This document shows, piece after piece, positions 42,716 through 45,295 of a stretch of 64,000 nucleotides of DNA. The stretch is from Escherichia coli (GTDB taxonomy: Bacteria > Pseudomonadota > Gammaproteobacteria > Enterobacterales > Enterobacteriaceae), in assembly GCF_009931435.1 (NCBI RefSeq), contig NZ_CP043414.1; one strand, given 5' to 3'. How positions within the stretch are numbered: position 1 is the stretch's first letter; the number at the start of each line of letters is the position of its first letter. Position numbers and translations under genes: made by a program. The notes under the pieces were generated by a model. That model was not told where the DNA came from. It saw nothing but the letters and a program-made list of their open reading frames with translations, and searched no databases.

Positions 42716-43030
42716 GCATCCGCGCACGCCAGCCGGATGCGGCGTGAACGCCTTATCCGCCTACATTTCGCCCATAAACCGTAGGCATGATAAGACGCGC
42801 ATAGCGTCGCATCAGGCATCTGCGCACAACTGCCGGATGCGGCGTGAACGCCTTATCCGGCCTACATTTCGCCCATGAGCCGTAGGCATGATAAGACGCG
42901 CATAGCGTCGCATCAGGCATCTGCGCACAACTGCCGGATGCGGCGTGAACGCCTTATCCGGCCTACATTTCGCCCATGAGCCGTAGGTATGATAAGACGC
43001 GTCAGCGTCGCATCAGGCATCTGCGCACGA
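42716..43030. repeat. Tandem BIME/REP array, about 3 copies of a ~100-bp unit
   Basis: The unit ...GCCGGATGCGGCGTGAACGCCTTATCCGGCCTACATTTCGCCCATGAGCCGTAGGCATGATAAGACGCGCATAGCGTCGCATCAGGCATCTGCGCACAACT... recurs at about 42731, 42831 and 42931. Confidence 0.85.
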
Positions 43031-43041
43031 CTTATCTATGT

Positions 43042-43581
43042 TTACCACATCAAATCATCAGGCACTTTAAAGTCGGCATACGGATCGTCTTCATCCTGCT
43101 CTTCGGCGCTGAGCGCGCTGTGCAACACAATACTGCTGGCATCACGCTGAGCAATTTTATCGGCAACGCTGGCGGGAATAATGGCGTATTCACCTTCGCT
43201 ATTGTTATCGACCAACAAGCGGGCAATCGCCAGACGACCATTAATCAACTGCGTTTGTGTGAGCTTATCGACAAAAATCTTCTTAATCAGATTGCCATCG
43301 GTAAAGTTAAAACCGATATCGCCATTGGCAATGGTGATCCGGTTCATTTCAATAAGCTGCTTCACCTGAGCTTTATATTCTTTCGCCAGTGCCGCTTGTT
43401 TTTGCTGCTCGCTAAGCTGTTTATCACGCTCAAGCTGTGCCTTTTTATTTTCTTCTACCGCCGCCCGAGCTTCACGCGCCTGAACGCGCGATTTTTTCGC
43501 CGTTCTCTCGACCTTCGCCGCTTTTTTGCTGGTGACTAATCCTGCTTTGAGCAACTGCTCTTGTAAGGTAAGTTTTGCCAT
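43042..43581 (-). CDS. yaiL: DUF2058-type nucleoprotein/polynucleotide-associated protein YaiL
   Basis: ATG at 43581 gives MAKLTLQEQLLKAGLVTSKKAAKVERTAKKSRVQAREARAAVEENKK... (179 aa, Lys/Glu-rich N-terminus). Confidence 0.8.
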   Translation of the reverse strand: MAKLTLQEQLLKAGLVTSKKAAKVERTAKKSRVQAREARAAVEENKKAQLERDKQLSEQQKQAALAKEYKAQVKQLIEMNRITIANGDIGFNFTDGNLIKKIFVDKLTQTQLINGRLAIARLLVDNNSEGEYAIIPASVADKIAQRDASSIVLHSALSAEEQDEDDPYADFKVPDDLMW

Positions 43582-43683
43582 CTTTGTTTCCAAACCCGCT
43601 GAATAATTTTTAGCGAGTATACCTGTAAACGCCGTGGGTGTATTGGGGGGCAAGTCCCTTTCGCCCCGGCTTAATAAGGCGCG

Positions 43684-44895
43684 TCAGGCATCAGCGCACG
43701 GCTGCATTCGGGATTTTCGACTCATCAAAATAAACACCGCTAATCCAGCAACAAGAATACCCGGCGCAGATGCGGCCATTACGCCAACCGTGCCAGTGCC
43801 TAATGCCAGCATTTTCCCTGCCAGCAACGGGCCGCTCATGGCACCCAGACGCCCAATCGCCACGGCGGTTCCCACGCCGGTTGCGCGGATCTGCGAACTG
43901 TAAAACAACGGAGCCAATGCATACAAAACGCTTTGCCCACCTGTTGCAAACAACCCTGCGACGAATCCCGCCAGCAACATACCGTTAAATGATGACACCG
44001 TTCCCAGCGCTAACAGCGAAGCTAACATACCGCTATAAATCAGTAGCGACATGGTCATTGGACGCAGTTTATCCATCAAGGCGCCCAATATTAACGTCCC
44101 GCTTGCCGCCCCCATTTGTAGTGCAAACATCACCCCTGCCGCCTGCGATGGCTGGAATCCTTGTTCCACTAAAAGCAGCGGTAGCCAGTTGATCAACATG
44201 TAGACCACCAGCAAAGTGAAGAAATAACACAACCACAGCAGCAGCGTTGCGGTTGCCGTTTCTGGCGCAAATAACGCACGCAGTGGAGGCGCGGCCTGTT
44301 TTTCGCCAGCGAACACCGCCGACTCCGGCAGCCAGTGCATTAATAGCGGCACCAGAATCAGCGGCACTACACCACCGACCCAAAACACCGTTTGCCAGGC
44401 TAAGTTTGCCCCTGCAAAACCCAGTGTCGCCGCCAGCGCCGCGCCAATGGGAACCCCGCAATACATCAGGCTCACCGCCGTTCCACGAAAACGTGGCCCC
44501 GCCGCTTCAGACGTCAGGGCGATAAGATTCGGCAACGCCGCCCCCAGCCCGACACCGGTCATCAGCCGCGCAAAGACCAGTGAGGGGAAATCCCAGGCAA
44601 TAGCCGTTGCCAGCGAGAACAAACCAAACAGCGCAACTGAACCAATCAAAATGCGTTTACGACCATAACGGTCCGCCAGCATTCCGCCAACCAGCGCGCC
44701 GGGTAGCAAACCGAGTATTCCGGCACTGAATATCCAGCCCATTTGCATTTTATCGAGTGCAAAAGCCTGGGCGATGCCACCCGCCGCAATGCCAGCCGCC
44801 TGAAGATCCAGTCCTTCCATCAGAGCGACTAAAAAACAAAGCCCGATGGTCAGCATCAGGCGGGATGAAGATGATGAAGGGGTACGAGTCGACAT
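43684..44895 (-). CDS. mhpT: 3-(3-hydroxyphenyl)propionate transporter MhpT (MFS)
   Basis: ATG at 44895 gives MSTRTPSSSSSRLMLTIGLCFLVALMEGLDLQAAG... (403 aa). Confidence 0.85.
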   Translation of the reverse strand: MSTRTPSSSSSRLMLTIGLCFLVALMEGLDLQAAGIAAGGIAQAFALDKMQMGWIFSAGILGLLPGALVGGMLADRYGRKRILIGSVALFGLFSLATAIAWDFPSLVFARLMTGVGLGAALPNLIALTSEAAGPRFRGTAVSLMYCGVPIGAALAATLGFAGANLAWQTVFWVGGVVPLILVPLLMHWLPESAVFAGEKQAAPPLRALFAPETATATLLLWLCYFFTLLVVYMLINWLPLLLVEQGFQPSQAAGVMFALQMGAASGTLILGALMDKLRPMTMSLLIYSGMLASLLALGTVSSFNGMLLAGFVAGLFATGGQSVLYALAPLFYSSQIRATGVGTAVAIGRLGAMSGPLLAGKMLALGTGTVGVMAASAPGILVAGLAVFILMSRKSRMQPCADA

Positions 44896-44959
44896 AAGAT
44901 GAACCTCGTTGCGAATGCAGGTGAATCGCGGCTGATACATTGCCAGCCGCGTAATCAAA

Positions 44960-45295
44960 ACCATTTAATGACTGCCTACGGACGAAAGTAGGCCGGATAA
45001 GGCGTTTATGCCGCATCCGGCTGTCGTGCGCCATTGCCTGATTCGACGCTGACGCGTCTTATCATGCCTACAAATTCCCGCGCCATCCGTAGGCCGGATA
45101 AGACGTTTACGCCGCATCCGGCAGTCGTGCGCCATTGCCTGATGCGACGCTGACGCGTCTTATCATGCCTACAAATTCCCGCGCCATCCGTAGGCCGGAT
45201 AAGGCGTTTACGCCGCATCCGGCAGTCGTGCGCCATGCCAGATGCGATGCTGATGCGTCTTATCAGGCCTGGGATGGGTATACAAAATGCACGTT
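44960..45295. repeat. Tandem BIME/REP array, about 3 copies, inverted relative to the 42716-43030 array
   Basis: GTAGGCCGGATAAGGCGTTTA(C/T)GCCGCATCCGGC...CGTCTTATCATGCCTAC units at about 44990, 45093 and 45193; each is the reverse complement of the unit in the array 3' of frmB. Confidence 0.85.

Follow-up and report, generated by a model that had tools for sequence, protein, structure and literature searches.

The two inverted repeat arrays around yaiL and mhpT in Escherichia coli are very probably independent clusters of the BIME-2 family

In the E. coli chromosome two arrays of tandem repeats bracket the genes yaiL and mhpT, one on the frmB side and the other between mhpT and mhpE, and the question that they raise is whether they form a pair with a joint role, such as the ends of a segment that can be inverted or excised, or are two members of a dispersed repeat family. 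We analysed a window of 64,000 nucleotides (contig NZ_CP043414.1), by which is meant the whole stretch of DNA that carries this locus. The arrays belong to the already known, dispersed REP/BIME-2 family, and we are highly confident that they are two independent clusters of E. coli BIME-2 in which 101-bp units, each made of a Y REP and an opposed Z2 REP, are repeated in tandem. A sequence-only reading of this DNA had described them as tandem BIME/REP arrays and had named the neighbouring genes frmB, yaiL, mhpT and mhpE; Tandem Repeats Finder and REP annotation bear out the first statement, with BIME-2 composed of Y and Z2 REPs as the precise class, and the open reading frames and the annotation of homologous loci show that the genes were correctly named.

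Both tandem arrays are real and they face each other (Table 1). Tandem Repeats Finder reported the left array at 42716-43032 with a period of 101, 3.2 copies, 94% matches and a score of 550, and the right array at 44988-45270 with the same period, 2.8 copies, 94% matches and a score of 503. At the level of single REPs the left array reads Y(+), 16 nt, Z2(-), 14 nt, three times over, and its units are 98% identical among themselves, while the right array reads Y(-), 14 nt, Z2(+), 17 nt, also three times. On the plus strand the left-array Y REPs read GCCGGATGCGGCG...CCTAC and the left-array Z2 REPs appear as GTAGGCATGATAAG...; the Y consensus that was used agrees with the REP sequence that PMC11208160 gives as known. 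The arrays stand far above chance because the 34-nt Y consensus, with at most 3 mismatches allowed, had 7 matches in the window and none in 100 shuffles, and the Z2 consensus had 3 matches in the window and none in the shuffles. The sequence-only reading had set the right array at 44960-45295; an array does lie there, but these limits are too wide, the array proper running from 44988 to 45272. Its mhpT-proximal edge, GTAGGCAGTCATT in reverse complement, is kept in all strains compared. The degenerate relic between yaiL and mhpT is 85% identical to the left-array segment CGCATCAGGCATCTGCGCACAACTGC.

Table 1. Positions of the repeat elements and of the genes around them in the window
Feature	Position	Strand	Description	Basis
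frmB/fghA	41882..42715	+	S-formylglutathione hydrolase	ORF, annotation of homologous loci
Left BIME-2 array	42716..43032		Three 101-bp units, between convergent frmB and yaiL	TRF and REP annotation
Left-array Y REPs (n=3)	42732-42764, 42832-42865, 42933-42966	+	0-1 differences from Y consensus	
Left-array Z2 REPs (n=3)	42781-42817, 42882-42918, 42983-43018	-		REP annotation, Z2 consensus scan
Left-array naRNA4 matches (n=2)	42784-42862, 42885-42963	-	REP325-type; 75.8 bits each, gathering score 59.5	Rfam RF02564
yaiL	43042..43581	-	DUF2058 protein, bracketed gene	ORF and annotation
Degenerate BIME-like relic	43660..43705		Z2 head and S-type linker, between yaiL and mhpT, overlaps mhpT stop codon	
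mhpT	43684..44895	-	3-hydroxyphenylpropionate transporter, bracketed gene	ORF and annotation
Truncated REP foot and 8-nt linker	44972..44987		CTGCCTAC, mhpT-proximal edge of right array	Read from sequence
Right BIME-2 array	44988..45272		Three units, orientation opposite to left, between mhpT and mhpE	TRF and REP annotation
Right-array Y REPs (n=3)	44988-45021, 45089-45122, 45190-45223	-	1-2 mismatches to Y consensus	
Right-array Z2 REPs (n=3)	45036-45071, 45137-45172, 45237-45272 (degenerate)	+	0, 1 and 6 differences from Z2 consensus	
Right-array naRNA4 matches (n=3)	44991-45068, 45092-45169, 45193-45269	+	70.9-78.1 bits, gathering score 59.5	Rfam RF02564
mhpE	45304..46323	-	4-hydroxy-2-oxovalerate aldolase, last gene of mhpABCDFE	ORF and annotation

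Both arrays are wholly extragenic, between annotated coding sequences, and the right array lies in the 3' region of mhpE, which is on the minus strand as is mhpT. In the 8 strains whose annotation of the locus was inspected, it holds only frmRAB, yaiL, mhpT and mhpE-mhpC. The first Y REP of the left array begins 16 nt past the frmB stop codon; work by Liang, Rudd and Deutscher reportedly deals with REPs that lie no more than 15 nt from a stop codon.

BIME-2 has been defined by z2 and y REPs in several tandem copies, with a short S linker, s/l/r flanks and a copy number that varies between strains (PMC3333891). Each of the six Y REPs in the two arrays has 0-2 differences from its consensus, five of the Z2 REPs have 0-3 and the remaining one is degenerate with 6, and no Z1 REP was called in a scan that included Z1. 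The Y and Z2 REPs alternate strictly, with linkers of 14 nt and of 16/17 nt, and the 14-nt, S-type linker can be aligned with the naRNA4 model of Rfam. Every full REP carries GTAGGC/GCCTAC, giving GTAG/CTAC feet, and the Y stem (GCCGGAT-GC-GGCG / CGCC-TT-ATCCGGC) has the GC/TT mismatch described in PMC3333891. The BIME-2 clusters REP325 (yjdM/yjdN), sucB-sucC and tldD-yhdP resemble the arrays in the opposed, alternating Y and Z2 REPs repeated in tandem every 100 bp or so, in the short head-to-head linker and the 16-17-nt foot-to-foot linker, in the extragenic 3' position and variable copy number, and in the feet and the stem mismatch. REP325 has six units and each array here has three; otherwise there is no difference of substance. 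BIME-1 (RIB/RIP) is like the arrays in having inverted REP pairs that include a Y REP, but it is single-copy, has Z1 instead of Z2, and its L linker is long and contains the IHF consensus; all three of these features are absent from the arrays. It had been claimed that arrays of this kind bind IHF, and here the claim fails, because IHF sites are a feature of the BIME-1 L linker and not of BIME-2 (PMC3333891); the IHF consensus WATCAANNNNTTR has no match in either array, the nearest being at 42604, inside frmB.

The suggestion that copy number may differ between strains proved right. K-12 and every strain examined have the same element at the same loci and in the same orientation, the unit number ranging from 1 to 3 at the left locus and from 0.5 to 4.5 at the right one. 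Gap lengths were counted in spread samples of 58 genomes. On the left a single unit was found in 34 of the 58 (gap of 124 bp), two units in the other 24 (224 bp), and three units are rare. The right locus is reduced to a lone Y REP in 34/58 and reaches 4.5 units in K-12, the gaps there being about 169 bp (n=34), 270 (n=7), 371 (n=1), 409 (n=1), 472 (n=3) and 573 (n=12). Closely related haplotypes change their unit number independently at the two loci: the window and 2020CK-00188 have 3+3 units (left+right), N96 and R32_14_1F have 2+3, and 24A16CRGN010 has 3+1. Thus, whole 101-bp units are gained and lost fast and independently between strains. Such changes would come about by slippage, by unequal exchange of 101-bp units or through TnpA(REP)/RAYT. 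The left array also serves as a target of IS621.

That the arrays are inverted relative to each other, as had been proposed, was confirmed. The inverted matches between them are 44-66 nt long with 86-95% identity, the best direct match is only 62%, which is due to the REPs being palindromic, and the two unit strings quoted in the sequence-only reading differ by 1 base from being exact reverse complements. Over a whole unit the identity between the arrays is about 81% (83/103 aligned columns) and the longest stretch that matches exactly in inverted orientation measures 31 nt, at 42989-43019 on the left side. The inverted homology is patchy, for the arrays have unrelated 16/17-nt linkers between their REP feet; on the plus strand these linkers read ATTTCGCCCATGAGCC and AAATTCCCGCGCCATCC, and their alignment is weak either way, with a score of 3 on the same strand and -12 in reverse complement. 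The inverted orientation is incidental, there being an even chance of it for any two arrays; a consequence of it is that the REP strand read in the frmRAB transcript is also the one read in the mhpABCDFE transcript. In a single genome the region has matches at a median of 28-31 places, and of 5426 E. coli genomes 5272 contain the 37-nt Z2 allele (GCATG + GTCAGCG) in exact form, the median being 2 places and the maximum 8, all round the chromosome. The arrays are therefore no special pair, and the sequence common to them is a dispersed family allele.

It could be argued instead that the arrays, as inverted repeats separated by 2 kb, exchange sequence by gene conversion and so are a co-evolving pair and not independent members of the family. 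The haplotypes of the window, N96 and R32_14_1F do carry GTAGGCATG in the Z2 REPs of both arrays, K-12-type haplotypes carry GTAGGCCTG at both, and the loop GCGTCAGCG is common to the last left Z2 REP and the right array. But the exact Z2 allele, being a common subtype found genome-wide, could have arrived at each locus independently, co-variation within haplotypes is expected anyway for loci so tightly linked, and the foot-to-foot linkers remain locus-specific in every strain compared, so that we regard conversion as unlikely. The joint GCATG variant of Z2 was dropped as evidence for it because the exact allele is dispersed genome-wide. Much less probable still, and indeed hardly credible, is the proposal that the arrays bound an invertible or excisable cassette, with yaiL-mhpT being flipped or removed by RecA, a RAYT or some other recombinase and the operon that reads into mhpT being switched thereby. 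The inverted arms and their 31-nt exact match are real, both arrays are intergenic so that flipping would break no gene, and TnpA(REP) cleaves and rejoins BIME strands in vitro (PMC3333891). However, when two repeat-free synthetic junction queries were searched against 5426 complete E. coli genomes, the 3' end of frmB was joined to the reverse complement of the mhpT 5' end in 0 of 5418 matching genomes and the reverse complement of the yaiL 3' end to the mhpE 3' end in 0 of 5412, whereas 5292 and 4828 genomes have the native junctions joined. Nor are the arrays kept as a pair, the right one being a single Y REP and the left one a single unit in 34/58 genomes each. About 500 genomes lack mhpT/mhpE and retain frmB-yaiL, but the boundary in these is at 43646 and not at an array. 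The homology is short and broken by the unrelated linker, the locus has no recombinase gene, and inverted repeats promote inversion and not excision. Invertible segments such as the fim switch and Hin/Gin are alike only in geometry, a segment between inverted repeats; here no recombinase lies next to the segment, a defined crossover site is lacking, and the repeats occur genome-wide. The inversion or excision that the paired arrays had been said to make possible finds no support and is, at the level of fixed genomes, largely refuted. In strains with 3+3 units a rare recombination of the inverted arrays, by RecA acting on the 31-nt identity or by TnpA(REP), might flip yaiL-mhpT in a minority subpopulation, which we consider barely more probable than the fixed cassette; such a flip would put mhpT under frmRAB read-through and would be invisible in consensus assemblies.

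The matches to RF02564 in Table 1 lie in the sense of yaiL transcription on the left and antisense to mhpE and mhpT on the right, where the alignment consists of two hairpins, Y and then Z2. The Rfam naRNA4 model was built on the BIME-2 cluster REP325 and in effect recognises any Y-S-Z2 unit of BIME-2. Five units exceed the gathering score, and under the original model of PMC4550694 the arrays would be genes for naRNA4-like RNAs that bridge REP cruciforms together with HU and condense the chromosome, the arrays being the contact points. We think this very improbable, if slightly less so than inversion. What the score detects is any Y-S-Z2 unit, and the strand of the right array that has the naRNA4 sense is antisense to both flanking genes, no promoter-like site having been found there. 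Moreover, a 2026 preprint, among whose authors is Adhya, the senior author of the 2015 naRNA4 paper, reports that neither compaction of the nucleoid nor a stable HU-crfDNA-naRNA4 complex nor Hi-C contacts between REPs were seen, and the role in the nucleoid that was proposed for naRNA4 is now disputed (10.64898/2026.03.23.713779). The arrays share with naRNA4/CssrE (RF02564) the sequence and the two-hairpin structure of the Y-S-Z2 unit; they differ in that the family was defined on one REP325 unit and in that the copies in the right array run antisense to the transcription units around them.

As two ordinary BIME-2 clusters, the arrays would most likely act locally, as 3'-UTR stabilisers, Rho-dependent attenuators and gyrase sites, judging from what is known of the family. 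REP hairpins in the 3' UTRs would block 3'-to-5' exonucleases and would be partial Rho-dependent attenuators, and the attenuation would favour frmB and mhpE over read-through into yaiL antisense or mhpT. As DNA, the Y REPs would be preferred cleavage sites of gyrase. Stabilisation of mRNA by REPs is established for the family, REP325 is both a Rho-dependent attenuator and a stabiliser of upstream mRNA, and for gene pairs in tandem and in convergent arrangement the presence of REPs between the two genes correlates with the bias in expression that would be expected (Harris et al. 2026, preprint, 10.64898/2026.03.23.713779). Binding of BIME-2 by gyrase is likewise established for the family, and cleavage by the enzyme is concentrated in BIME-2 elements, chiefly in their y REPs (PMC6379681); both loci are absent from the supplements of that paper, and a literature search found no paper that names mhpT or yaiL together with REP or BIME. 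RNA folding is strong, with z = -7.0 in the 3' region of frmB and z = -9.0 in that of mhpE, although in the minimum free energy fold Y pairs with Z2 over a long range and not as local hairpins. No intrinsic terminator was found inside the arrays and the count in the region was not above that in shuffles. Because REP effects are reported to depend strongly on context (10.64898/2026.03.23.713779), any effect on frmB, yaiL, mhpE or mhpT may vary in size and even in direction.

These results file two conspicuous repeats in a well-described family and remove a speculative inversion cassette, and their wider import is small. The two loci do offer a clean natural series of unit numbers, 1, 2 or 3 for the left array and 0.5 to 4.5 for the right one, among haplotypes that are nearly identical in other respects, and this series could serve to test whether the copy number of REP/BIME units tunes 3'-UTR stability and read-through (10.64898/2026.03.23.713779).

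By its ORFs and the annotation of homologous loci, the 42.7-45.3 kb part of the window is the E. coli frmRAB/yaiL/mhpT/mhpE region, with one tandem REP array between frmB and yaiL (the left array) and another between mhpE and mhpT (the right array). A scan with consensus Y, Z1 and Z2 REP sequences, which are consistent with the 'known REP sequences' given in PMC11208160, gave Y(+), 16 nt, Z2(-), 14 nt, three times over, in the left array and Y(-), 14 nt, Z2(+), 17 nt, also three times, in the right array, whose bounds were corrected to 44988-45272, as 44972-44987 has no more than a linker and a truncated REP foot. 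The Y consensus matched 7 times in the window at ≤3 mismatches and the Z2 consensus 3 times, each versus 0 in shuffles. Every full REP of both arrays has the GCCTAC/GTAGGC foot, and there is a GC/TT mismatch in the Y stem. Units inside one array are 96-98% identical; left and right units, compared as reverse complements, are the same in 83 of 103 aligned columns. Exact inverted identity extends over at most 31 nt (left-side position 42989-43019), and the 16/17-nt foot-to-foot linkers are unrelated (ATTTCGCCCATGAGCC versus GGATGGCGCGGGAATTT). The inverted orientation of the arrays described in the sequence-only reading was borne out by a repeat search, in which the arrays matched each other over 44-66 nt at 86-95% in inverted orientation and at 62% at best in direct orientation.

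Features of the frmB-mhpE region and related sites (window coordinates unless a homologous locus from another strain, L003 or L004, is named)
Feature	Position	Strand	Details	Basis
frmB (fghA)	41882-42715	+		ORF; homologous-locus annotation
yaiL	43042-43581	-		ORF; homologous-locus annotation
mhpT	43684-44895	-		ORF; homologous-locus annotation
mhpE	45304-46323	-		ORF; homologous-locus annotation
Left array	42716-43032		period 101, 3.2 copies, 94%	Tandem Repeats Finder
Right array	44988-45270		period 101, 2.8 copies, 94%	Tandem Repeats Finder
Degenerate BIME-like relic	43660-43705		between yaiL and mhpT; Z2 head + S-type linker, 85% to left-array segment	
Further Y REP	12996-13029	+	1-2 mismatches; near exact IS621 target	
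Further Y REP	26737-26770	-	1-2 mismatches; near exact IS621 target	
IS621 insertion	L003 1268-2248		homologous to left array, ~42980	
IS621 insertion	L004 4675-5655		homologous to left array, ~42980	

According to Ton-Hoang et al., BIME-2 consists of z2 and y REPs in multiple tandem copies, varying in number by locus and by strain, with a short S linker between the REPs and s, l or r sequences at the flanks, while BIME-1 is a single y and z1 pair with an IHF site in the long L linker (PMC3333891). By their tandem Y and Z2 REPs, both arrays are BIME-2; their assignment as BIME/REP arrays was right, and they are a well-known element, correctly observed and already known. Unlike BIME-1, neither array has an IHF consensus (the 5 matches in the whole window are all outside them), and the proposed IHF binding was wrong because the IHF site is that of the BIME-1 L linker (PMC3333891). 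Rfam RF02564 (naRNA4), whose model derives from a single unit of the BIME-2 cluster REP325, exceeds its gathering score at five units, three in the right array (+) and two in the left (-); these are the only Rfam matches in the 64-kb window, which by this measure has no other BIME-2 tandem array.

A set of 5426 complete genomes was queried with junctions made by joining repeat-free 400-bp anchors of each flanking gene. The native arrangement turned up in 5292 genomes for frmB-yaiL and in 4828 for mhpT-mhpE. Gap lengths come from evenly spaced samples of 58 rows, ordered by score and from a clinically biased collection: on the left 124 bp (34 genomes) or 224 bp (24), and on the right ~169 bp (34), 270 (7), 371 (1), 409 (1), 472 (3) or 573 (12). 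REP annotation of example loci showed that the left classes are 1 or 2 units. The right locus has a lone Y REP in O157:H7 and ARS-C101 and is otherwise Y(Z2-Y)n, with n=1 in 042, 2 in EC0026B, 3 in MRE162 and 4 in K-12; the window haplotype has an additional terminal Z2 (409 bp). Three-unit left arrays are rare; a query with the full array matched just two genomes colinearly in one piece. 2020CK-00188 is 3+3 (units left + units right) as in the window, at 98.4% identity, and 24A16CRGN010 has 3 units on the left and only 1 on the right. N96 and R32_14_1F are 2+3. These differing combinations show that whole units are gained and lost fast and independently at the two loci, and the suggested variation between strains was thereby confirmed; it is a known BIME-2 property (PMC3333891).

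It had also been suggested that the arrays could support inversion or excision of yaiL-mhpT. Inversion between them should join the frmB 3' end to the reverse complement of the mhpT 5' end, and that of the yaiL 3' end to the mhpE 3' end. Neither junction was joined in any of the matching genomes (5418 and 5412, respectively), and the locus encodes no recombinase, so the suggestion is unsupported; that rare flipped subpopulations, invisible in consensus assemblies, exist is very improbable. Most sampled genomes have just one REP or one unit at one of the two array loci. mhpT/mhpE are entirely absent from about 503 of 5426 genomes. In UPEC-774U yaiL abuts lacI, a GlxA-family pseudogene fragment and lacI following directly after yaiL (homologous locus L005, 5160-5420), and the stretch that resembles the window stops at 43646, in the yaiL-mhpT interval rather than at an array. 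Therefore yaiL-mhpT is not a mobile unit. The 43646 end is ~14 nt before the BIME-like relic.

Nor are the two arrays a special pair. Each E. coli genome has a median of 28-31 places that match the array region, and this figure is too low. In the window haplotype, the left and right Z2 REPs share an unusual GCATG variant, at first taken as a hint of inter-array exchange; it was dropped as evidence because the 37-nt allele GTAGGCATGATAAGACGCGTCAGCGTCGCATCAGGCA occurs unchanged in 5272 of 5426 complete genomes (median 2, maximum 8 places per genome, spread round the chromosome) and is a common family subtype. Each locus keeps its own foot-to-foot linker in all strains compared. The relative orientation of two arrays, moreover, is a coin toss.

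Several other features were observed. IS621, an IS110-family element using bridge RNA, is inserted within the frmB-yaiL array of FXCREC035 (human, Shanghai) and ARS-C101 (cattle, Texas), between GTAG and GCC of a Z2 REP; this is the element's natural target, ATCAGGCCTAC, and the CT core is present at either end. Neither array of the window has an exact target because Z2 there reads ATCATGCCTAC, and the only exact targets in the window are at 13043 (-) and 26701 (+). The relic overlaps the mhpT end, such that REP-derived sequence supplies the last ~7 codons (...QPCADA) and the stop codon, an overlap kept in K-12. A perfect 8-bp-stem palindrome at 44927-44951 (CGCGGCTG-ATACATTGC-CAGCCGCG), between the array and mhpT and 32-56 nt upstream of the mhpT start codon, has 1 change in K-12 and could be a regulatory site or 5'-UTR hairpin. 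The locus (41882-46323) diverges from most E. coli, with ~94-95% identity to K-12 over mhpT/mhpE and 96-97.5% in the frmB/yaiL anchors. It is colinear with 2020CK-00188 at 98.4% identity, and several strains match the mhpT 5' 400 nt at 100%; this suggests a mosaic, recombinant region.

Folding of the regions downstream of frmB and mhpE is far stronger than in shuffled sequence (z = -7.0 and -9.0), and no intrinsic terminator was found in either 3' region. A 7-bp-stem hairpin over the mhpE stop codon (45290-45311, -), followed by CATTTTGTAT, lies just upstream of the array and is a weak candidate intrinsic terminator for mhpABCDFE; across the region, terminator-like sites are no more numerous than expected from shuffles. 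The distance from the frmB stop codon to the first REP is 16 nt in the window, against 13 nt in K-12. REPs ≤ ~15 nt from the stop codon reportedly depress upstream-gene translation (Liang, Rudd and Deutscher 2015).

Harris et al. (preprint 10.64898/2026.03.23.713779) show that REP325, the model BIME-2 cluster, stabilises upstream mRNA and attenuates the downstream gene in a partially Rho-dependent way. Genome-wide, they find that REPs lying between tandem genes bias expression upstream, whereas with REPs between convergent genes both members of the pair are more highly expressed; the earlier HU/naRNA4 nucleoid-condensation model (PMC4550694) is not supported by their data. The right array is in the tandem context (mhpE then mhpT) and the left in the convergent one (frmB, yaiL). 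By analogy, the right array would most likely cause partial Rho-dependent attenuation toward mhpT and stabilise mhpE mRNA, and the left would most likely favour frmB over read-through antisense to yaiL. Gyrase cleavage sites are enriched in BIME-2, chiefly at y REPs and independent of transcription (PMC6379681). Going by this literature, the mRNA stabilisation and gyrase binding put forward for the arrays would be right, and at the DNA level gyrase would most likely cleave them, mainly at the y REPs.
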